This document shows, one piece after another, positions 27,936 through 61,971 of a stretch of DNA of 64,000 nt. Within the stretch, counting starts at the first letter, position 1; each line of letters starts with the position of its first letter. The notes under the pieces were generated by a model. It had not been told where the DNA came from. It saw nothing but the letters and a program-made list of their open reading frames with translations, and searched no databases. The translations under genes were made by a program, and so were the position numbers. This DNA is from a virus (lineage: Duplodnaviria; Caudoviricetes): the IMG/VR virus record IMGVR_UViG_3300025000_000057. The stretch is one strand, 5' to 3'.

Positions 27936-29681
27936 CTATACATCTCCTGTCTGAACCCATATACAAAGATTTAACCAGATAGAAAGTTTCTCACTCCAGA
28001 CTTCTTCTGGTATAGATTTAAGTTGCCAGAAGGCCATGCCATATATACTAACATCGTTAGTATTATATTCTATCCAAGTATGACTATTATGATCATAAGC
28101 TAACCAGGTATTTCTATTGTCAAAACTTAATAAGATCTTAATATCGTATAACTGATTAGGGTCAATCTCTATATCTTCAATCGTAATAGTATCGCTTGTA
28201 TCAATTCGGTTATTATCATCAGTTATCGTAATTTGTTGACTATCAATACAATATAGTTTTTCAGTATCGATTTGCTCTTCAGGTATAGTCTCTTGTCTAT
28301 CGGATGATAGTATTTCTATTTCTATATCGACGGGCTTACTAGATTTTAAATCGCCCATTAAGAAGGTCAGCTTAATAATTTCGAAAGAACTAACGATAGT
28401 CTTAAACGTTAATGAATTTATAAACGAGGTATACGTAGGCAATCTTGATATAATAACCAAACCTGCATTATACCATATATTTGTATTAATAATAGGGTTA
28501 CGTAAATTACCAGCATACGAAGAACCGCCATATCCGCCCCTATTTATATCACCGGCCATACCACCGTAGTAGCCACCACCGCCACCACCGCCAATCTCTG
28601 GATGGTTTTGACCATTGCCTAATATTGTAGTTAAATGCAAAGTTTCTCCACCGGAACTACCGGCGCTTAAATTCCCACCGCCGCCACCGCCACCAGCAAC
28701 GATAATTCTATTTTCTAATTCTATACCGCCTCTTCTAATATCGGTAGCACCGCCACCACCTGCACCAGGCCCTAGCGGCCCGGCATTACCACCGCCATTC
28801 CATCCTCCACCTTCGCCAATAAAGCCCGTTCCATCCCCGCCGACAAATATATATAACTCTTGACCGGAATCTAATAACATTTGACCACGAACATGACTAC
28901 CAGAACCACCAGGGTAAGAATAAGCACCACCTACAGCACCGAAAAGATCTAATTGATAAATTCCTGTAGTTGGTACAATAAAGGTCTGATAATTACCAGA
29001 ACTATTAAATACCGCAGTTTCAACAGCTTCTTCTATACCCAGTAAGGCAAGTAAAGTTATAGCAACCTTACCATATCCAGTACGAATTCCAGGGGTAGTG
29101 ATACCGTTTAGAACTCCACCATAATAGGAGGAACCTCCTCCACCGGAACTACCTCAAGTATATCCACCTCCGCCACCGTACCATCCACCTCCGCCACCAG
29201 AACCATGACTTATTCCATTACTACCGTAACCAAAGCTACCATATGTTCCACTTACTCCTCCTGAACTACCTCCTTGTGTTTGTGTACCTCCACTGCCAGT
29301 AGTTCCACCAATACCAATTAATCCACCACCAGCGCCACCTTGAGCTGTATGAGAGTGTCCAGCTCCGCCGCCAGCAACCAGGATACGGTCATTAAGAGTT
29401 TGTCCTCCTCTTCGTATATCGGTACCACCACCGCCGCCGCCATAAGGACTAGCAAAACCGCCTCCATTCCAACCAGTAGAATTAGGAGCTCCTATTCCTC
29501 CAATATATATATAAAGAGTTTCAGTATCCCCTAAGTTTAAAATACCAGAGGCGTAACCACCGGGAGCTCCATTATTACCACCCTGAGCGCCCCATGTTTC
29601 AAGCTTATATATACCGGGAGGTAGTGTTACTTCTTGTTGACTACCGGTATAGTTAAAATTAAATACTTGTAAATCCACCAC
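27936..29681 (-). CDS. Glycine-rich tail fibre/adhesin (581 aa) with one in-frame UGA at codon 176 (29154-29156); two Gly-rich domains plus C-terminal repeat module
   Basis: Track ORFs 29154-29681 and 27936-28880 are in the same frame. The 91 codons between them have no stop and complete Gly-rich domain 1 (GSSGGGGSSYYGG...GYGKVAITLL) and begin domain 2 (FNSSGNYQTFIVPTTGIYQLDLFGAVGG). GTG start with GGAGG RBS; no RBS before 28880. Confidence 0.8.
29112..29150 (-). promoter_or_regulatory. SECIS-like/readthrough stem-loop downstream of the in-frame UGA (Gly-rich gene)
   Basis: Upper stem GGAGGA/UCCUCC with loop GGU (29127-29141); the loop begins 18 nt after the UGA. Possible lower stem AGUUCC/GGAGUU. 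Confidence 0.55.
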
Positions 29682-29689
29682 ACTACCTC

Positions 29690-32600
29690 CTATCCGTAAA
29701 TCCAGTTGTCACTAAAGGTTTTAAATCCTACACAAACATTTAACCAGTTAGTTAAAGCTTTATGCCAAGCATCTCGCGGTATGGATTTAAGTTGCCAGAA
29801 TGTCATTCCTGTATTGTGAATGTTATCTATACCCTTCTGTATCCAAGAACTAGTATCGTGGTCGTAAATGTACCAGGTTTCTCGATTATTAAAGCTTAAT
29901 AAGAATCTAATTTGTATACCATCGATCTCTTGATAATCGGCCACAATATCTTGAATAGCAACGGCTTGTCTTGTGTCAATTCTATTATAGTCATTTGTCA
30001 TAACTATAAATTCTGTATCTTCACGATTATCAATAATATTGAGCATTGCAAACTGTTCTTCTTTGTCATAATAGATAGTATCGCTCTTTACCTGTTCTTT
30101 AGGCAAATCTTGTATATATAAGATATCATCAACATCTGGTTCGGTATAACTCGATTTACTTATTAAGAAATTACAGACTATTTCCGATTTAAGTCCTGTA
30201 AAGCTCTTTGGAATATCAATAGTGAACAGTTTATCTAAATCTCCAGATTCCAATATTCCTGTGATATAATGACTTGAGTTATTAGTAAGAAGTCCTGTGA
30301 TTATACTTATAGCATTTCCATCAAAGTTCTTTAAGGTACGAAAAGGTATTAATACAGGAGAATCTTTCTCTTCTAAAACCTCGTGAATAGGAATATCTAA
30401 TTTAAACCCCGTTAACATGGGTATCTGGTAGACATCGAATTTATTAACAATTGTTCTGAAAGTGAATCCATTAACAGTATACATTGTCGTATTTAATAAG
30501 GTTATTCTAGCCTTACCATTCCCGGCTTGAACTCCAATCTGCATAGTACCGTCCGATACTCCGTCTGTATAACTAGAACCACCGCCGCCATTTGCTGAAT
30601 ATCCAGAACCATGTGGCGAATCGTTACCACCGGCCGCGCCGCCATAATAACCGCCACCGCCACCGCCTGAACCAGAGCAACAACCAGTATCTCCTGCGCC
30701 GCCTTGATATAGCGTCCCATTCCCACCTTTTACATACGTTCCGGCTCCTACACCTCCTTGTGTTTGAGAACCTCCTCCACCACCCCAAGACCATTGATAA
30801 CCAGCACCCGTTCGTGCTGGATTGGTAGTTAATTGACCAGCGCCCGATTGTGCTTGTATTTCGCCGCCAGCGCCGTAACGAGAATTTCCATACTCGCCAC
30901 CGCCACCGCCACCGCCAGCAATAATAATTCTATTAGAAAGAGAAGTATCGCCAACTCTTATATCAGTAGCGCCACCACCGCCACCACCATAACGAACACT
31001 ACTACTGGTATCGGTACCTCCATTACCTCCACCATTCCAACCTCCTGCTTTAGCACGACCCGGATATCCACCAATACAGATGTATAAAATATCACCCTGG
31101 GTTAAAGTAATCGTACCTTTAGTATAACCTCCGAGACCACCGGTTATTGAACTTCCTCCCGGCAATCCACCTTCAGCACCCCATACTTCTAATCGGTAAT
31201 CGCCTGTAAAAGGTGCTATCCATGTTATGTAATTGCCGGTATAAGTGAAATCGTATATTGTTTCATTACTATCGCTAGGATAGGCTATTAATCTAATAGC
31301 CATGTCTAACCATTCTGACAACTTTGTACTCCAAGTTTCTTCAGGAATAGAACTAACTTGCCAAAATGTCATTCCTTTCTCCTGAATATCATCTAAACTT
31401 ACAATAACCCATTGGTTGGTACTATAATCATAAGAATACCAAGTATTTCTATTGTCAAAGCTAAATAAGAATCTTTCATTTCCATTACTGTAATAGTCCT
31501 TATTTATGTCTTTAATTGTTACTATATTAGATGTATCTATCCTTGTATAATCATCTGTAGTAACGGTTATATTAATCGGTCGATCGCTACATATAGAAGT
31601 AAATATAGAAGGTGTTTTATCCAATATTTGAATCGACTTTAATGTTTCAATGTCAACAGTCTCACATATCAAATCTAAAGGTTTAGTACTGTAGTAAGAC
31701 GGTATATGAAGACCTTTTAAATACTCTAAAACATTACCAGAAAGTTTAGGTATAACGGGATCGATACTAATTAGATCATTAATAATTAAAAAGTCTATCT
31801 TATCTTCCTCGTTATTATGACTACTTTTATAAACTCCTACTAAATGACTCGCAATTAAAGCTCCAGCTCGCGATAAGATAGGAATATTTATACTATTATC
31901 CATTCTTTCTTTAATACCATTAATTCTACAGGTATTGCTTATAGTACCAGCTATTGTATCTATAGCAGCTCCGCTAGATACTATTGTTGGTATATTCTCT
32001 ACTTCATCAGAAGGATGAGTAAAGGTAACTTCTGATACGTTATTTATATAACATGCTATAGTTGTCCTAGTAATTACGCCTAGTAAGTTTCCGACGTATT
32101 CTATTAAAAGTTTACTTACAGATGGTGTAATACTTATATCTATGGTAGCAAGAGCAACTGCTATATTTAAATTTCCATGTACGCCCGGTTGAAAATAGTT
32201 CCAATCTACAGTATTTAGTTCGTCTGCTGTCATACCTACTCTATCTATATCGTCAAGTGACGCTTCTTGCCATACGGTATTATAAGTTAGCCAGCTACCT
32301 TTATTATCAAAGCTTACCAAGTATCTTAACAAAGTACCCTCGGGTTCTATTTGTACAGCCATTATATTAAGGATCTTTTTAACTTCGCTACAATCTATCT
32401 GATTATCTCCGGTAGTAATGTGATAAGGGATTATAGGATAAGAGAATAATACAAATCCAGCCTGATAGTTGATTTGTTTCTCTTCTTGACTAAGTACTCT
32501 ATTATATATTCTGGCCATAATAACACAACCATCAAAGGCTCCATAAGGGCCTGCGCCCATAATAATTGGTGACCATACTCGTGTCATATTAGACTTAAGT

Positions 32601-33274
32601 CCAATACGTACCAATACTCCATTAATATAAATAAACGGTTGCCTATCTATATACTCTACAATGACATGGGTTATTCCCGTAACCTCACCGCTATAAACGG
32701 CCACTGCGGGAAAATGAGCATCTCCGTATTCGTAAACACTAACTCCGTTAGAACCTATAGATACCCCTGCACCAACTCTAGTATCTATATATTTAGAAGG
32801 ATAAAACAAATACTTTTGACCATCTAATCCTGGAGAAGAACCTGTATTTATCTCATTATCAATCTGGTGTAATTGATCGGTCTGAACCCACGCTTCCAGG
32901 GTAAAGGTATCATAAACAGGATTATAGCTAAGAGTGCATTTACTATTTATACCGTTAAATAAAAGAGCATAGGGATTTGCATTAGTTCCATCCCCTATCC
33001 AGCCGTCCGAAATAAAGTTAAAGTCAGAAAGCTCGGTCAACTTCCAATCTCCGCTTGCAGCGAGATTAATCCATGTAGATAATGGATTAGAGCCATGTTT
33101 GTCATCCTCTGTAGCTCGGGCAGCAATCAAATCGATTAATAGCCCGTCCTTTACATACTCATGTACTGTTTTATGTAAAGTGACGGCATCAACTAGAAAA
33201 TCGATGCCGTCAATATTTGGGATGACAAATGACTCTTTATCATAGATATTAAATTGCAAAGAGTCCTTTGCCAT
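29690..33274 (-). CDS. Tail fibre/adhesin (1194 aa): LamG/concanavalin-like domain, glycine-rich domain and repeated fibre modules
   Basis: FTLEAWV...THVIVEY...FIYINGVL...FDGCVIMARIYNRVLSQEEKQINY (LamG-like); YRLEVWGAEGG...GGGGGATDIR...IIIAGGGGG (Gly-rich). Confidence 0.75.
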   Translation of the reverse strand: MAKDSLQFNIYDKESFVIPNIDGIDFLVDAVTLHKTVHEYVKDGLLIDLIAARATEDDKHGSNPLSTWINLAASGDWKLTELSDFNFISDGWIGDGTNANPYALLFNGINSKCTLSYNPVYDTFTLEAWVQTDQLHQIDNEINTGSSPGLDGQKYLFYPSKYIDTRVGAGVSIGSNGVSVYEYGDAHFPAVAVYSGEVTGITHVIVEYIDRQPFIYINGVLVRIGLKSNMTRVWSPIIMGAGPYGAFDGCVIMARIYNRVLSQEEKQINYQAGFVLFSYPIIPYHITTGDNQIDCSEVKKILNIMAVQIEPEGTLLRYLVSFDNKGSWLTYNTVWQEASLDDIDRVGMTADELNTVDWNYFQPGVHGNLNIAVALATIDISITPSVSKLLIEYVGNLLGVITRTTIACYINNVSEVTFTHPSDEVENIPTIVSSGAAIDTIAGTISNTCRINGIKERMDNSINIPILSRAGALIASHLVGVYKSSHNNEEDKIDFLIINDLISIDPVIPKLSGNVLEYLKGLHIPSYYSTKPLDLICETVDIETLKSIQILDKTPSIFTSICSDRPINITVTTDDYTRIDTSNIVTIKDINKDYYSNGNERFLFSFDNRNTWYSYDYSTNQWVIVSLDDIQEKGMTFWQVSSIPEETWSTKLSEWLDMAIRLIAYPSDSNETIYDFTYTGNYITWIAPFTGDYRLEVWGAEGGLPGGSSITGGLGGYTKGTITLTQGDILYICIGGYPGRAKAGGWNGGGNGGTDTSSSVRYGGGGGGATDIRVGDTSLSNRIIIAGGGGGGGEYGNSRYGAGGEIQAQSGAGQLTTNPARTGAGYQWSWGGGGGSQTQGGVGAGTYVKGGNGTLYQGGAGDTGCCSGSGGGGGGYYGGAAGGNDSPHGSGYSANGGGGSSYTDGVSDGTMQIGVQAGNGKARITLLNTTMYTVNGFTFRTIVNKFDVYQIPMLTGFKLDIPIHEVLEEKDSPVLIPFRTLKNFDGNAISIITGLLTNNSSHYITGILESGDLDKLFTIDIPKSFTGLKSEIVCNFLISKSSYTEPDVDDILYIQDLPKEQVKSDTIYYDKEEQFAMLNIIDNREDTEFIVMTNDYNRIDTRQAVAIQDIVADYQEIDGIQIRFLLSFNNRETWYIYDHDTSSWIQKGIDNIHNTGMTFWQLKSIPRDAWHKALTNWLNVCVGFKTFSDNWIYG
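33181..33212 (-). repeat. 10-13 bp hairpin near the 5' end of a CDS
   Basis: UGACGGCAUC-GAUUUUCUAGUU-GAUGCCGUCA (extendable by G-U and A-U pairs); nt 63-94 of gene 29690-33274. Confidence 0.85.
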
Positions 33275-39883: not shown

Positions 39884-40225
39884 TCACCTCGCAACAAAGA
39901 AGTTATTAGAACCGCTTACCATATTTCCGGCCCCTTGGAGATGAATATTCACTCCATCTCCAACTCTTACAATACCCCGACCGTTTACAAATAAACTAGT
40001 ACTAGCCTGTACATTCGTATATCCTGCTCCACAACATGGGCAGGTTGTATAACCTGTATCGCTTAGTCTTGCTGCGGACTTACCGTTAATAAACATATTG
40101 TGACTCCCGGTCACTTGGCCACCCGTAACCGAGTGGCCACCACATCAGTTATCTGGACAACCATGACCATTGTGGTGTCCGACGCTGCCATTCATTCTAT
40201 CACCTATTCTACAAGCTGCTGGCAT
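39884..40225 (-). CDS. PAAR spike-tip protein (113 aa) with one in-frame UGA at codon 27 (40145-40147)
   Basis: ATG 40225 preceded by AGAGGTG. Translation: MPAACRIGDRMNGSVGHHNGHGCPDN*CGGHSVTGGQVTGSHNMFINGKSAARLSD...TCPCCG...FVNGRGIVRVGD...HLQG...SGSNNFFVAR. The track reports only the part after the UGA, which lacks the first PAAR motif. Confidence 0.85.
40116..40139 (-). promoter_or_regulatory. SECIS-like/readthrough stem-loop downstream of the in-frame UGA (PAAR gene)
   Basis: UGGCCACUCG-GUUA-CGGGUGGCCA: 10-bp stem with one G-U pair and loop GUUA. The stem starts 5 nt and the loop 15 nt after the UGA. Confidence 0.6.
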
Positions 40226-55505: not shown

Positions 55506-58500
55506 CTAACCTAATACCAAACTACTATAGTTATTCATACAATTGGCTATATCTTGTCTAATATCTCTTTGTGTCTCAACCTCTACTGATAATTGTCCCG
55601 TATCGTTTGGTTCTATCTGTATTTCAGCATCTATTCCGGCGCCACCTAGAATAGATTGTAATTTACTCTTAATAGTATTGGCCGTCTCATGTATATTAAT
55701 CTTTGGCGCCGGCGGAACATTTGGTTCATTAGCAGCAATCTCATCATCTGGCCATATATCAAATTCAGACGGATCCATACTTTCAGCTTTAATATATTTA
55801 ACCTTTACGTTATTAAGATTTACATCTTCTCGCCAGCCGCCCCACTCCGGGTCAGGTAAGAAGTGAGCTTTGAAGTATTCAAGAAGACTTTGCTTTTCAG
55901 ACGCTTTCTCTCCCCAGGCTTCCTGAACAATACGTTTCATATATGGAGACATTATATCACGTAGCTCTTCTCTTTCATCCGGGGTAGCATTAATAAAGCC
56001 TTCTAAGTATTGTCGCTCTTTCTTTGGTATAGCTCGTAACAGATCCTTTAGAGGATCTTGTGGCTTATGACCGTACATAGTACTTTTACTTTCATTGTAA
56101 TAATCAAGAGCCTTTTGAGCCAGTGGTGTTAGTTTCTCTTCTTTCTTTGGAGCTTTTAACTTGGTTAATTCTTGGTTAATCAGTTTGATAAGTTCGCGCT
56201 CATCCCTGGGGTTACCTGTAAGATTTAGCTTGGTAATCCATTCATTAACGTCAACATTATCAGTAGTACCTTTAATATCACGTTTAGCACTTTCTAATTC
56301 ATTAGTACGTTTACTGTCAATCTTCTTCTGCTCATCTTTCTCTTGAAGGTACTTCTTAACATCGAACTTCTCTGTATCAAGCGCTTCTTGAGCATACTTA
56401 TTATAAAGAGAGACATTCTTCAAATACTTTAACATATCGTAATACTCATGGGTTTCCCATTCTTTCTTACGACGTTCTGGTACCCAGGTTTCACCTGTTA
56501 CGAATTCGTGTCCAGTGAAATATGCACCGCCAGTACCACCCAGTACGGCACCCAGACCTGTAGCTATAATCTTACCAAACCGTTTACGTCCGGCTAAGTA
56601 TCCCATAAATCCGCCAAACAGTCCTCCTACTATCATCCCTTTAGACATTATCGATTGATAAGTCGGAACAACATAATCTTCCCAGGGATCTTGCCACATC
56701 TGCCAGTCTTTGCCGTACAAATCACGACGTTTGTAGCTTTCGATAGGAGAACGTACCTGCAAAAGCTTTGTATGAAATGGCGTATCCAGGTGAGCGAATT
56801 TCTCCCATGCTTGACCCATTGCTCGCTCACTCGGCGTAAACCTAGCAACTATTCCAGCCGGAGTAAAATCGTTATCTTTTTCATTAGCTAAGTCTTGCTC
56901 TAATAGTTGCCTATTTAGATTCTCATTACCCGTATATACTACCGCTGAGATAGTCTTATATGTGTCATCGTTGATTTTAGTTACATCGTCTGCCGTATAC
57001 TCGATAGTCACTTGTTCACCCGGTTTGATATACTTGTTAAGGAATTGACGAGCTCCCGCCTTCTCCTTACTCATTGGTACACGTAGGCCGGCAAGTTTGA
57101 TAGGATTGTCTGGATACTCTTTGGTATAGAAGAAGTAATCATGACTATCTTCCCAATCATCAAGTACCTTGGTTACAGTAACAGTCTCACTCTTAGTCTC
57201 TTTATCTTTAAACCTATACGGGTATAGGCGTATCGGATCGTTACGGTCTTTTACTTGTTTTCTTATCTCTTTAACCTCTTGTTCTTGCTCTTTGGTTTTC
57301 TTCATTTCTGTAACGAACTTAGAGGCTTCGTCATACTGTGTAGACCAAGGAGCCACATCTGCCAAAATTCTAAACCTTGATATAGGGCCGTATAACTCTC
57401 CTCTATGAATCTCTCCGGCTTCTAATTTCCTTCTTATTTCAGGATCTTCTAAAGCCTTTTCAACCTCGGCTGCCGTATCGGGATGGAGAGATTCGTACGC
57501 CTCTCCTGGTAATCGCATTTCTCCACGACGTATTTTTACATAAGGGTCGCCAGTTTTAAAATCCGTGAAGTATTCTTCACCGGGCAGCCAATCCGGCATA
57601 GTATTTGGTACAGGATTATATCGATTCTCCCATTTCTCACGGTGTCCAATAAAGCGACGGGCAATTTCGTTAATATCGCCCGGAATGCCACCGAGTTCCG
57701 TATCCCAGAATTCTCTTCTATAAGAACTCATAGCACGAGCTGTGGCAATTTGAGGTTCTATACCCTTACCTGTATCATAAAGAAGTTCTGTACTAAAGCC
57801 ATAAAAGCCACCGAACTCTTTAACATTCTCCCAGGTTTGGAGTATAGCCATATCTGTATCAACAGGGTTCTTAATTTCTCTATTATATTTATCAACTAAA
57901 GACTTACCTACTGTTTCAAATGCGGCTTTAGTTATACCACTTTCGCGTATTGCATTAATAAGAGCAATACGTTCTTTATTAATCTGCTCACTTTCAAGTG
58001 AGCCACCTTTACGGATAAGTTCCCGCTCTTCATCACTCATTCCTGATAAGATAGACGTTGCCGTATAAGCATTAACAAGGCCGTGACCAGTCTCTTTATC
58101 CCATCCATCTTCCTCTAAATCTACAGCCGTAGATTGAATTAGGAACTTAATTTCCGCCGGGGTAAGGTCGGGACGTTGTGTTTTTAGAAGCGCCGCAGTA
58201 GCAGCTACATGAGGAGTAGCCATTGAAGTACCACTTGACACTCCGTACATACTACCCATTTGAGAATCTTCTGGTAGCGTACTTGCAATATCGACACCGG
58301 GCGCCACCACATCAAGACCTGCACCGCTATTAGAGAAATCTGCTTTTTTCATATTAGGCCCAACGGCGCCTACCGCGATAGCTTCCGGATATATAGCAGG
58401 ACTTCCTACATGTTCGGTCTGATACTCATTACCAGAGGCCGCAACTACTACGATACCAGAGTTGTACGCTCGTTTAATTGCATCACTATAACCTGGGTTA

Positions 58501-61292
58501 ATGTTAGGGCTACCAAGGCTCATGTTAATGACATCTACCTTCTGACCATTAGCTCCTCTCCACTTTATCGCATAATCAATTCCTTTAACAACATCTTCAG
58601 TAGGAGCTCCTCCACTATCAAATACCTTAATAGGCAATATCTTAACCGAGGGCCAAGCTACACCGGCCACACCCTCTTTATTATCGCCAATAGCCGCTAT
58701 AGTACCTGTAACGTGGGTACCATGTCCGATCGTATCTTCATCCCACGGAGCGTAACTAACCTCGGTATGTTGAAAGTCTTTATACCTCTTAGCAAAGCTT
58801 TTTCCAGGTAGTATCTTACCCTTAAGATCTGGATGATCTTTATCCACACCACTATCAATAACAGCTACAATACTTTCTTTATGAGAATCTTTCATTACAG
58901 TACCAATGGCAGGCCCGGCCCCGATTTTCTTATAGCCCCATTGTTGGTTGTAATATTCATCATTAGGGGTTTCGTAACTCTTTGGCTCAGTAGCTACTGT
59001 GGTATCATCCTCGCCCTCTATCTTCCGCCATACTTCGGGATGCATTGGTCTTTGTGGTTTTAATAGTTGGCCAATAGTTGCATTAAGTAGTGGGCCTATC
59101 AATGGAAACTCCTCAAGTTCAGGTGTTCCACCGGTTAATAGGTATGGTCTATCTTTATAATGTTTTTCTTCAAAGTGATATGGTTCAGTTACGAAATGAC
59201 GTAAAGGAGCTAATGGGTATCGAGGAGTAGGATAAGGTGCGTTAGCAAAGTATTCACCCTCACTCCCGTACTGAGTATCAGTATATTCATAATGAGATTT
59301 AGTACGTCTTACCCAATTTGGTGAGTAATACATCGTCCGGCTGCCGGTTAGTGGCGTATTTCCCATAAACCACCAACGACCTTTTCTTATCGGAACTTCT
59401 CCTTTTTCCCAGAACTCCTCGGTTTCTTCCTCGGTATCGTCAAGATCGAAGAATCTACCTATCAATGGAAATTCTGCAATCTGCTCGCCACCGGGTAAAA
59501 GGTTCTTAACTTGTTTAGCCATGTCTGTTATACCAAGTACATCTTTAACTTTGGCTATACCCGTACTTACCTCTGAATAACCTTCAGCTATCATATCATC
59601 CGGGCGAATCCCTGTAAGATTCTCAGTTTCATAATTCATATAATCCCAAGCTTCAAGTCCGGCCCATACAGGTACAGCTCTACGCAATACCATGTTAAGA
59701 AATATATCAGCCCCACTTTTCCTATGCTCGGCAGATAAACCTAAACGAAATGTAGCCAAGGCTGCATCTAACCTAGAAAAGAAATAATAAAACGGCACTG
59801 ACAGTGTAGTTGTATCTTCTGGACGATCTCTATGAGCGAAGAATTGCTTTGTAATATCTATAGGATTTTCATAGCGAATGCTACGCATAAAAAGCCAGTT
59901 TGTTTCACTTTCTTCTTGTCCGGCTCTACCCCAGGTGGAACCGAAAGGTCTACCGGAGAAAAGACCACGATTCTCGTACGGAAGCATGTGCTTCCAAAAC
60001 ATATCAGCTGGCTTTGCTATAATATCTGTTAGAGCATTCGTTATATCAAATTCTCGATTATAATCATCTTTTTGCTGGTGACCTATATCAAGTTTCCTAG
60101 TGAACCAGGCCCAATGTTTACGCCATCCACTAGTAGGATATTGGTAATCTTCAGGTTTTGGTAATCCGGCACCGCTAATTCCTTGTAAGAATGTCCGCCC
60201 AGGGCCGACCTTCGCATTTATTAAATAACCTTTGATGGGTGCTTTACTTGCATCTTCTACATCATGAAGCATATCATCAAGCATTAGATAAAGTTTCTTT
60301 GTAGATTCTCTACCGGATAATACAGGTTGTATTTCATCCGGACTCATAAGATGAATCATTGGTCTATCTCTAACATTTAACATATCTCCAACGTGAAACA
60401 TTGCCAGCGGATTAAAGTTTACAAACGGTAACCCGAAATCAGTTTCCATAGAATTGAGTACCGACTTTCCTACCTTAGGCCAATAACGCAAATCGTGTAA
60501 TTTACTTGCCTCGTCGATAAAAACCCAAGGGTCTGCCATTTTATTAAATAGATTTTGTTCACCCAGTTCTACTCTGTACTTAGAGATTATGTCACGACTA
60601 TTTAATCGGTTTCTATTGAATAAAGCACCTTTACTATTTTGGTGATTCCAAAGATCGCCTACGGTAGCCCGACGCATACCGTACTTTCTAAGATCTGTTT
60701 CACGCATCTCTTGTGTGTACTCGTTATAACTAGAAAGAAACTGTTTAGTTTTATCCTGAACAATACGTTGTCTTCTAGTATCGACCGTGCGAGCATGCTC
60801 CATTACTCGTTCAGTTTCTCTGAGCCGCCGTTCTATATCAAGATCGTCTGTAATAAGCTTACCACCAGTAACGCCTCTTTGCATTAAATTAGCTCTTTTA
60901 GCAGCAATCTTATTGGATAACTCTGTCATACTTTCTTCCCAGCCGGCCCCGAGTATACCGTGACTACCAAGGAGTTTATCTTTAAGAGTACTATATTGAT
61001 CCCATGGTAATGGCCCTTTAGCCCACTCTTTAACAGAAGATAGTATAGCATCAGCTTCGGTAGGCCTAAACCTTCCCATAGCTTTAATAAAGCTTTTAGA
61101 GATATCGTTAAAAGCACCTCTTCTAAAAGCATGTCTACCTCCAAGGAATAAAGCAGTACCTATACCCGTAGTAGTCAAAAAGGTTCGCAATGGCGAACCT
61201 TTATTCTCGTAGTAATGATCTGGGTTTAGGTATTTATGATGTTCAGGATTTCCGTCTATACTTTCTTTCCAAAAGTTGTCGTTGGACGGCAT
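55506..61292 (-). CDS. Tape-measure-like giant protein (1928 aa) containing an S8 subtilisin-like protease domain and an SNase-like segment
   Basis: ATG 61292 with GAGGAG RBS. Follows the chaperone pair. S8 motifs VAVIDSG, HGTHVTGTIAA, AASGNE, SGTSMATPHV. Gly/hydrophobic segments typical of tape measure proteins (GMIVGGLFGGFMGYLAG). Confidence 0.75.
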   Translation of the reverse strand: MPSNDNFWKESIDGNPEHHKYLNPDHYYENKGSPLRTFLTTTGIGTALFLGGRHAFRRGAFNDISKSFIKAMGRFRPTEADAILSSVKEWAKGPLPWDQYSTLKDKLLGSHGILGAGWEESMTELSNKIAAKRANLMQRGVTGGKLITDDLDIERRLRETERVMEHARTVDTRRQRIVQDKTKQFLSSYNEYTQEMRETDLRKYGMRRATVGDLWNHQNSKGALFNRNRLNSRDIISKYRVELGEQNLFNKMADPWVFIDEASKLHDLRYWPKVGKSVLNSMETDFGLPFVNFNPLAMFHVGDMLNVRDRPMIHLMSPDEIQPVLSGRESTKKLYLMLDDMLHDVEDASKAPIKGYLINAKVGPGRTFLQGISGAGLPKPEDYQYPTSGWRKHWAWFTRKLDIGHQQKDDYNREFDITNALTDIIAKPADMFWKHMLPYENRGLFSGRPFGSTWGRAGQEESETNWLFMRSIRYENPIDITKQFFAHRDRPEDTTTLSVPFYYFFSRLDAALATFRLGLSAEHRKSGADIFLNMVLRRAVPVWAGLEAWDYMNYETENLTGIRPDDMIAEGYSEVSTGIAKVKDVLGITDMAKQVKNLLPGGEQIAEFPLIGRFFDLDDTEEETEEFWEKGEVPIRKGRWWFMGNTPLTGSRTMYYSPNWVRRTKSHYEYTDTQYGSEGEYFANAPYPTPRYPLAPLRHFVTEPYHFEEKHYKDRPYLLTGGTPELEEFPLIGPLLNATIGQLLKPQRPMHPEVWRKIEGEDDTTVATEPKSYETPNDEYYNQQWGYKKIGAGPAIGTVMKDSHKESIVAVIDSGVDKDHPDLKGKILPGKSFAKRYKDFQHTEVSYAPWDEDTIGHGTHVTGTIAAIGDNKEGVAGVAWPSVKILPIKVFDSGGAPTEDVVKGIDYAIKWRGANGQKVDVINMSLGSPNINPGYSDAIKRAYNSGIVVVAASGNEYQTEHVGSPAIYPEAIAVGAVGPNMKKADFSNSGAGLDVVAPGVDIASTLPEDSQMGSMYGVSSGTSMATPHVAATAALLKTQRPDLTPAEIKFLIQSTAVDLEEDGWDKETGHGLVNAYTATSILSGMSDEERELIRKGGSLESEQINKERIALINAIRESGITKAAFETVGKSLVDKYNREIKNPVDTDMAILQTWENVKEFGGFYGFSTELLYDTGKGIEPQIATARAMSSYRREFWDTELGGIPGDINEIARRFIGHREKWENRYNPVPNTMPDWLPGEEYFTDFKTGDPYVKIRRGEMRLPGEAYESLHPDTAAEVEKALEDPEIRRKLEAGEIHRGELYGPISRFRILADVAPWSTQYDEASKFVTEMKKTKEQEQEVKEIRKQVKDRNDPIRLYPYRFKDKETKSETVTVTKVLDDWEDSHDYFFYTKEYPDNPIKLAGLRVPMSKEKAGARQFLNKYIKPGEQVTIEYTADDVTKINDDTYKTISAVVYTGNENLNRQLLEQDLANEKDNDFTPAGIVARFTPSERAMGQAWEKFAHLDTPFHTKLLQVRSPIESYKRRDLYGKDWQMWQDPWEDYVVPTYQSIMSKGMIVGGLFGGFMGYLAGRKRFGKIIATGLGAVLGGTGGAYFTGHEFVTGETWVPERRKKEWETHEYYDMLKYLKNVSLYNKYAQEALDTEKFDVKKYLQEKDEQKKIDSKRTNELESAKRDIKGTTDNVDVNEWITKLNLTGNPRDERELIKLINQELTKLKAPKKEEKLTPLAQKALDYYNESKSTMYGHKPQDPLKDLLRAIPKKERQYLEGFINATPDEREELRDIMSPYMKRIVQEAWGEKASEKQSLLEYFKAHFLPDPEWGGWREDVNLNNVKVKYIKAESMDPSEFDIWPDDEIAANEPNVPPAPKINIHETANTIKSKLQSILGGAGIDAEIQIEPNDTGQLSVEVETQRDIRQDIANCMNNYSSLVLG
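61179..61202 (-). terminator. Intrinsic terminator-like hairpin inside the 5' end of the tape-measure-like CDS
   Basis: AAAGGUUCGC-CAUU-GCGAACCUUU then UUGAC (a run of 5 U overlapping the stem base), 41 nt after the stop of the 242-aa gene. Confidence 0.55.
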
Positions 61293-61971
61293 TGAATAAC
61301 TCCTCATTTTCCGTAGGATTTTCCCACTCTATACCGTTTATAAAATCCCTTTGACCAACAATGAATGGGAATTTTAAATAGTTCTTATCCCAACGTGATT
61401 TATCTATCGTTAGCATCGGATCTATACCCGCTGCTCTCATTTTCTCAGTCATTTCTTTCTTAGATGATTTCTCTTCGTCATTAAATGTAACGCTAAGACT
61501 ATACCCGGGTATAGAGTATACCTTATTGATAAGATTTAGTTTATACTCAGCTTCAGCTACCTTTTTCCATAGCTTTGCGGCATCCCAGTCGCTCATTTCT
61601 TCTATACTAATCTCTGGGAAAGCTGTACTTATCATAAGTTCGGCTTGATGTACTTTATTATCTTCTATCTCTTGTCGATAGAATTCATAAAGGTACCGAC
61701 TTTGATTAGGATCTCTATATCCAGACTCATCGTATATTAAAGGAAAGAGTGCTTTAGCCACACCAGCTTTATACACACTCCAATTTACTACCGGGTAAAG
61801 TACGCAAGTAGAACAGACTACATCTTCCATATCCATTTCGGATAACCCTAATCCAGCTATAAACTTATTTTCTTTTCTTGTTAGAAGTCTCCAGATGTAA
61901 TATTCATTACCGATCTGCGTACAGAATAATGGGTTGTGTATCTTCTTAAGTTCCGCAATAATCCTTTGCAT
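61243..61971 (-). CDS. Tail assembly chaperone-like protein (242 aa)
   Basis: IWRLLTRKE...EDVVCSTCVLYP parallels IWRSISRTE...EEMITELCTLWP in the upstream gene. Lies between the tube-like and tape-measure-like genes. Overlaps the next gene by 50 nt. Confidence 0.6.
   Translation of the reverse strand: MQRIIAELKKIHNPLFCTQIGNEYYIWRLLTRKENKFIAGLGLSEMDMEDVVCSTCVLYPVVNWSVYKAGVAKALFPLIYDESGYRDPNQSRYLYEFYRQEIEDNKVHQAELMISTAFPEISIEEMSDWDAAKLWKKVAEAEYKLNLINKVYSIPGYSLSVTFNDEEKSSKKEMTEKMRAAGIDPMLTIDKSRWDKNYLKFPFIVGQRDFINGIEWENPTENEELFNAVQRQLLERKYRRKS

Follow-up and report, generated by a model that had tools for sequence, protein, structure and literature searches.

In phage Q-beta, a UGA at the end of the complete coat domain leaks to give the A1 protein, and both products are functional. 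In Escherichia coli fdhF, the UGA is followed by a SECIS element with a GGUC loop and a stem spacing close to 12 nt, and many anaerobic Firmicutes have the machinery for selenocysteine (Sec) insertion. UGA is read as glycine in code 25, which is used by Gracilibacteria/Absconditabacteria – organisms of the same aquifer as the phage described here. In stop-codon-recoded phages (codes 4 and 15; e.g., PMC9523058), a single gene carries many recoded stops, and suppressor tRNAs are usually encoded. In the literature that we searched on phage selenoproteins and on read-through of UGA in the virion genes of tailed phages, the only cases were genome-wide recoding and RNA viruses.

Here we describe an in-frame TGA in a tail-fibre gene of a ~219-kb phage, the source being a virus record from groundwater. 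The sequence examined was 137,036 bp (~61% of the genome), circularly permuted relative to CACUYJ010000001.1. Coordinates refer to a 64,000-nt stretch, the window, which corresponds to G000:C1:22861-86860 on the minus strand. The locus has something in common with each of the systems above. As in Q-beta, a full-length phage virion protein would be made via rare near-cognate UGA decoding; as in bacterial SECIS elements of the E. coli fdhF type, the UGA has, within ~12 nt downstream, a stem whose apical loop contains G/U; and as in stop-codon-recoded phages, the in-frame stops of this genome lie in late structural genes.

A tail-fibre gene with one internal TGA

All long genes of the window are on the minus strand. 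Within a myovirus-type baseplate/fibre module (hub, PAAR, wedge and fibres), we observed two ORFs in the same frame: a 175-aa ORF (29154-29681) that has a GTG start behind AGGAGG and ends in TGA, and a 314-aa ORF (27936-28880) with an ATG start at 28880. When the TGA is read as sense, the two merge into one frame of 581 codons (27936-29681, minus strand) that includes this one internal TGA, begins at the GTG and closes with a TAG stop.

Pfam identified two PF12810 matches in the fibre. The first (E 3.8e-47) aligns residues 16-209 with profile positions 1-241 of 243 and corresponds to glycine-rich domain 1 (residues 1-215; 29037-29681). Since the TGA is at residue 176, it falls inside domain 1, and the domain match is continuous across the stop. 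Glycine-rich domain 2 (28440-29036), assigned from Pfam PF12810 and alignment, is followed by a C-terminal non-glycine module (27939-28439). The merged frame and the stop-spanning PF12810 match bear out the initial sequence-only reading, in which the same-frame ORFs were joined across one TGA and 91 sense codons.

An AlphaFold2 model of residues 1-215, for which a glycine was put at the break and a 33-row alignment supplied, had a pLDDT of 93.7 and a pTM of 0.91 and placed beta-strands 191-200 and 205-213 3' of the TGA. Foldseek matched this model to ALK/LTK glycine-rich domain (GRD) structures (E about 1e-7), with further structural matches to the cyanophage Pam3 fibre and the Bxb1 tail tip. 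By profile and by model, the domains are predicted to be ALK/LTK-type glycine-rich domains of the PF12810 family with a TNF-like/polyglycine fold.

The 314-aa ORF is an annotation artefact of the stop; its ATG has no Shine-Dalgarno sequence upstream and lies ~50 residues into domain 2 – in agreement with the earlier observation that this ORF is incomplete on its own and lacks a ribosome-binding site. The C-terminal module is paralogous to modules of the upstream fibre protein, which is intact, 1194 aa long (29690-33274, minus strand) and composed of one GRD and the same C-terminal modules. The two proteins are 38-43% identical over the module by tblastn (direct repeats D2 and D4). Outside its own phage the module had no relatives among 5.8 billion proteins, its own protein being the sole match. 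All of the codons 3' of the TGA are intact (405/405), and every family-invariant residue is kept. The stretch 27936-29681 is thus one tail-fibre gene, comprising two glycine-rich domains and a C-terminal module.

The sequence-only reading had also suggested that the stop might yield a functional short isoform of 175 aa. This was not borne out by the model, in which the short product is without core strands 191-200 and 205-213; a designed 175-aa isoform is therefore unlikely. The fibre differs from Q-beta in this respect, as its UGA lies inside a domain and, on AlphaFold2 and Pfam evidence, the 175-aa product would be unable to fold, so that two functional products would not be expected. It differs further in belonging to a dsDNA phage of roughly 219 kb.

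The TGA itself (codon 176; 29154-29156, minus strand) occupies a loop of domain 1 between the invariant GGGGGWYGG and GGGGSSY motifs. Two features of this region would favour a sequencing or assembly artefact in a glycine-rich repeat: it is repetitive, with 16-nt repeats on both sides, and contigs of other organisms cross-map nearby. However, the repeats are shorter than the k-mers used, and the same base was recovered throughout. Over 15 kb that include the TGA, the Logan contigs of two source runs (22x and 29x) show no difference, and a sediment run from another study differs from them at one base in the same 15 kb, leaving the TGA codon unaffected. The TGA is likewise present in the NCBI record CACUYJ010000001.1 (219,483 bp) and in an independent MEGAHIT assembly of the sediment run, which reads GGATATACTTGAGGTAGTTCC. 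Verification in assembled contigs, as distinct from raw reads, thus covers three samples, two studies and three assemblers at 5-29x depth, with no variant. Absence of the TGA had been named as one way in which the sequence-only reading could fail; the codon is there in all assemblies examined. We regard an assembly error as excluded for practical purposes and give an artefact of any kind next to no weight.

The TGA-bearing genotype is dominant in all three samples. Because the populations are nearly clonal, this agreement does not allow long-term maintenance of the TGA to be inferred. We found no fibre orthologue in GenBank phages (blastn, tblastn), in an IMG/VR scan or in loci of related huge phages (tblastn), and a protein search of 5.8 billion proteins returned no orthologue of the whole fibre or the C-terminal module. 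Scanning metagenomes for the exact flanks, with the TGA codon left as NNN, yielded neither an orthologue nor a variant. Related huge phages contributed a single protein with a glycine-rich domain (in G004), and its loop is unrelated.

Residue and RNA context at codon 176

A profile alignment of 120 homologues, which contributed 361 GRD domain instances, puts the TGA column in a hypervariable loop between invariant GGGGGWYGG and GGGGS(G/S)Y motifs. The most frequent residues at this column are Asp (91 of 361), Gly (77), Ser (65) and Asn (51), with Val in 22 instances, Cys in five and Trp in none. Homologue instances with the same flanks as the fibre, GYT_GSS, have Gly at this column. The gene's own repeats provide a second view of the codon. 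A 16-nt exact intragenic repeat of family D7, GGTAGTTCCGGTGGAG, begins directly after the TGA (29138-29153) and is identical to 28646-28661; a third copy (29255-29270; 88% identity) is preceded by the codon GGA, so a single G>T change of GGA explains the stop. These sequence comparisons point to GGA (Gly) as the ancestral codon.

The column also bears on selenocysteine insertion at codon 176, in which a host SelB-tRNA(Sec) would read the downstream hairpin as a SECIS. The GGU loop of that hairpin stands at about the fdhF SECIS distance from the UGA, and the lineage has relatives in Clostridioides difficile and Paenibacillus, both of which would suit this reading. The alignment on which it could be judged, proposed from the sequence alone with Cys, Trp and Gly as the residues to compare, went against it: because Cys is so rare at the column and same-context homologues have Gly, the fibre fails the Cys/Sec-column test for a selenoprotein. 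The hypervariable surface loop has no partner Cys or metal site. Within the 137 kb examined (61% of the genome), we found no tRNA-Sec over the cut-off, no selB or other sel genes and no release-factor domain, and Rfam gave no match at the fibre site. Compared with a bacterial SECIS, the fibre hairpin is 6 bp without a bulge and is at most marginally distinct in statistical terms. A single SelB would moreover need to read both this hairpin and the element in the PAAR gene described below, which differ. Sec insertion at the fibre is thus not supported, and we consider it quite improbable.

The hairpin exists as it was first described, with the sequence GGAGGA-GGU-UCCUCC (29127-29141, minus strand; 6-bp stem). 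Its stem starts 12 nt after the UGA; the distance of 18 nt, which the sequence-only reading gave alongside 12 nt, is that of the loop. The equivalent GGGGSS motifs of the paralogous domains, near 28515 and 30575, form no such hairpin, as had been noted, and TCC, the rarest Ser codon, occurs twice in the 3' arm. Folded alone, the hairpin has a free energy of -8.8 kcal/mol; it is not the dominant fold in 42-76-nt contexts, and the 76-nt stretch is unremarkable against dinucleotide shuffles (z +0.46; 131/200 shuffles at least as stable). Synonymous-codon resampling that drew on the phage's own codon usage gave z -0.8 to -2.0 for minimum free energy (p 0.04-0.19) and p 0.021 for the best 21-nt local hairpin, and the 1746-nt fibre gene holds five equally good local hairpins. 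In favour of the earlier argument for selection on RNA structure, the hairpin is specific to this copy; the synonymous recodings set it apart only marginally, and the shuffles do not. The signal is suggestive but weak, marginally above chance.

This hairpin is the local evidence for programmed read-through, in which a near-cognate tRNA, aided by the hairpin or by a phage or host factor, would decode the UGA at a set low rate and so throttle the 581-aa fibre. The result of the local resampling (p about 0.02), the absence of the hairpin from the paralogous motifs and a loop that tolerates many residues are all in line with such decoding. Its short stem and triloop, a fold in context that it does not dominate and its ordinary standing among shuffles count against it, as does the UGA-G context, which is not known to be leaky in E. 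coli. A truncated product predicted to be unfoldable also removes the logic of two isoforms. We hold programmed read-through at the fibre to be unlikely, although well short of negligible.

Two further routes past the stop were rejected. A bypass of the T4 gene-60 kind, with take-off at ACU and landing 19 codons later at the following in-frame ACU, would cost the protein its family-invariant GGGGSSY. For re-initiation, GGAGGAGG, 12 nt downstream of the TGA, is Shine-Dalgarno-like, but the one ATG close by lies in another frame, which closes after 4 codons. As a separate feature of this region, the coding-strand sequence GGTGGCGGAGGTGGAT occurs twice just upstream of the TGA, at 29162-29177 and 29183-29198, as a perfect direct repeat of 16 nt with a 21-nt period; slippage between its copies would delete 7 codons in frame.

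UGA usage and the PAAR spike-tip gene

TGA terminates about 15 of 121 greedy ORFs, in some cases within ATGA/GTGA overlaps from which the next TAA/TAG is 37-56 codons on, and ORFs of 1,933-3,482 codons contain zero in-frame TGAs. Among TAA/TAG-bounded segments of at least 150 codons, a truly internal TGA occurs in the fibre only; shorter segments contain one, in the PAAR gene. The 137 kb thus have two in-frame stops, both TGA and both in the baseplate/fibre module. A back-up TAA/TAG is present within 6 codons of 9/15 TGA terminators, compared with 23/105 TAA/TAG-terminated genes (Fisher p 0.004), in some cases in tandem (e.g., TGA-TAA, TGA-TAG). This suggests that UGA is a weak terminator in the present phage-host system. 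One of the ORFs that end in TGA (242 aa, 61243-61971) overlaps the start of the 1933-aa ORF at 55506-61307 by 65 nt in another frame, and the first ATG of the 1933-aa ORF has no obvious ribosome-binding site.

These counts weigh on a genome-wide reassignment of TGA in the host, by code 25 (UGA=Gly) or code 4 (UGA=Trp). An ancestral Gly, a groundwater sample, the small number of genes that end in TGA and the back-up stops after most of them would all accord with a changed code. However, two in-frame TGAs in ~40,000 codons, with none in the longest ORFs, are far from what recoding predicts; TGA terminates at the ATGA/GTGA overlaps; and the TGA that closes the PAAR gene stands at the very position of a relative's TAA. 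ARAGORN predicted 11 tRNAs in the 137 kb (61% of the genome), none with a UCA anticodon, and the relatives infect standard-code Firmicutes. Terminator usage and the rarity of in-frame TGA lead us to reject a genome-wide code change, which we consider very improbable. The same survey gave no sign of a phage-encoded suppressor among the 11 tRNAs in the 61% of the genome covered. With two sites in 137 kb, a TGA that still terminates and no suppressor tRNA found in this portion, the present phage is unlike the stop-codon-recoded phages. Outside the window, at G000:C1:108599-110753, the ARAGORN predictions include three tRNAs whose anticodons (taa, tag, taa) are those of Leu and whose length of 77-81 nt falls short of the usual long-arm tRNA-Leu.

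The second in-frame TGA (40145-40147) is in the PAAR spike-tip gene (39884-40225, minus strand), which reads HGCPDN-TGA-CGGH. We identified a TGA at the same codon in two relatives with ~70% protein identity, L005:9908-10261 (on Logan SRR27170999 contig L005) and L015:9893-10246. The GC contents of the three phages are 38% (present phage), 38% (L015) and 63.5% (L005). Downstream of the TGA is hairpin 1 (40116-40139), a 10-bp stem that is more stable than shuffles (z -3.3) and than synonymous recodings (z -4.2 to -5.8). RNAalifold recovered it with compensatory changes at two pairs, and 89% of its cells are paired, as against 25-56% when the partner strand is slid. Hairpin 2 (40100-40114), GUGACCGGGAGUCAC, is identical at 15/15 nt in the three phages despite their difference in GC. 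The PAAR gene's own terminator is TGA in the present phage and L015 and TAA at the same place in L005. Because the same gene terminates at TGA in two phages, decoding of its internal UGA would be context-specific.

In the nearest intact PAAR homologues, among them one from a Paenibacillus plasmid of 206 kb, the TGA column is occupied by Tyr, within the motif P-[IV]-Y-C-x-G-H, a pattern that favours an aromatic residue such as Trp over Sec without settling the matter. This comparative evidence makes the PAAR UGA a strong candidate for recoding that is programmed and site-specific, in a virion protein of a dsDNA phage. Searches with the invariant-hairpin pattern and by protein alignment found no further PAAR relatives in IMG/VR, JGI metagenomes or GTDB genomes; one locus considered (L019) was rejected as an unrelated bacterial PAAR. 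Stop usage in the GC-rich relative is of separate interest. In L005, seven of the 13 called genes end in TAA, four in TAG and two in TGA, which is unusual for 63.5% GC and hints that this phage avoids UGA as a terminator.

The PAAR and fibre sites share a genome, a codon, a virion module and a downstream hairpin. Only the PAAR element is kept in three phages, with a covarying 10-bp stem, an invariant second hairpin and z of -4 to -6 against synonymous recodings; the fibre site is without these features. A covariance model built from the three PAAR sites (R1) scored 72.7 bits at its own site and matched no other site of the window, and with filters off and E up to 10 it had no match at the fibre site (29100-29156). 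The PAAR site is the stronger finding.

The PAAR element also provides the wider case for programmed read-through at the fibre. A UGA kept in three phages of 38-64% GC and followed by one hairpin that covaries and another that is invariant over 15 nt, in a gene whose own terminator is TGA, would imply context-dependent recoding there. Both in-frame stops are TGA and both are in tip proteins, and TGA terminators are backed up above expectation. Against this, the fibre hairpin is unlike the PAAR element. That read-through of the fibre belongs to the same UGA-based control as the PAAR spike tip is, in our view, doubtful.

A proposed nonsense allele and its alternatives

The reading that we find best, to which we give roughly an even chance, is that a redundant fibre gene has recently acquired a nonsense allele by GGA>TGA, with rescue by basal UGA leakiness at most. 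A Gly codon GGA in the hypervariable surface loop of domain 1 would have become TGA, and the TGA would have been fixed in a natural population of this phage, on a probable Firmicute host, with no dedicated recoding signal at the site. Termination at the UGA would leave a 175-residue fragment unable to complete the domain fold. Full-length fibre would be made only via basal near-cognate read-through, UGA termination appearing weak in this system, and the intact 1194-aa paralogue with the same domains may make the loss tolerable. We infer the recency of the change, the low-level read-through and the compensation by the paralogue; that this is one gene, that the TGA is real and lies in a loop, that its codon was once Gly and that the site lacks a PAAR-type signal are results given above.

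Several of these results argue for a nonsense allele. The domain is continuous over the TGA, GYT_GSS-context homologues have Gly at the column, and a repeat copy has GGA where the stop stands, such that one G>T suffices. The RNA fold is no better than shuffles and marginal against synonymous recodings, the PAAR covariance model is silent at the site, an intact paralogue adjoins the gene and no orthologue shows the TGA maintained. The excess of back-up stops after TGA terminators makes some read-through plausible. Other results are harder to reconcile with a nonsense allele. Both in-frame stops in the 137 kb are TGA in the baseplate/fibre module and the PAAR one is clearly under selection, whereas a random nonsense change would be TGA with a chance of only 0.25-0.34. 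The 405 downstream codons are intact with all invariant residues kept, and the hairpin combines two rare TCC codons with a 12-nt spacing and is absent from the two paralogous motifs. The dominance of the TGA genotype in three samples indicates that it is not obviously deleterious.

The locus resembles an ordinary nonsense allele in a duplicated gene for a phage tail fibre in its single-base GGA>TGA change in one of two adjacent paralogous receptor-binding genes, in the lack of a dedicated signal and in an otherwise intact frame. It is unlike such an allele in being fixed in all samples, and in that the genome's one other in-frame stop is a conserved, structured UGA. A nonsense codon explains the split annotation into 175-aa and 314-aa pieces, alone an ordinary event.

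The fibre TGA matters through its company, a PAAR UGA maintained over three phages with a covarying hairpin. The PAAR site is the part that looks new; the fibre site alone looks like an ordinary event in an unusual setting. A broader possibility, which we hold only tentatively and think unlikely, is that this group of Firmicute jumbo phages controls its host-contacting tip proteins through UGA, with the conserved PAAR UGA as founding member of the system and the fibre UGA as a second one that evolved independently. Set-rate decoding, by hairpin-stimulated read-through or Sec, would then fix the copy number or chemistry of tip proteins. If the fibre UGA were decoded too, these phages would have in UGA a general means of setting the expression or composition of their tip proteins. 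The fibre site also constitutes a natural control – a UGA without a strong signal in the same cell and operon as PAAR.

The phage's host is probably a Firmicute. A virion protein neighbouring the fibre has relatives at 34-38% identity on a Paenibacillus plasmid and in C. difficile genomes, and a Firmicute host fits because of these relatives and the strong AGGAGG ribosome-binding sites. The 206,502-bp 'plasmid' of Paenibacillus sp. EC2-1 (L020 / G005:C2) has relatives of both the virion protein (38% identity) and PAAR, and may itself be a jumbo phage or phage-plasmid.
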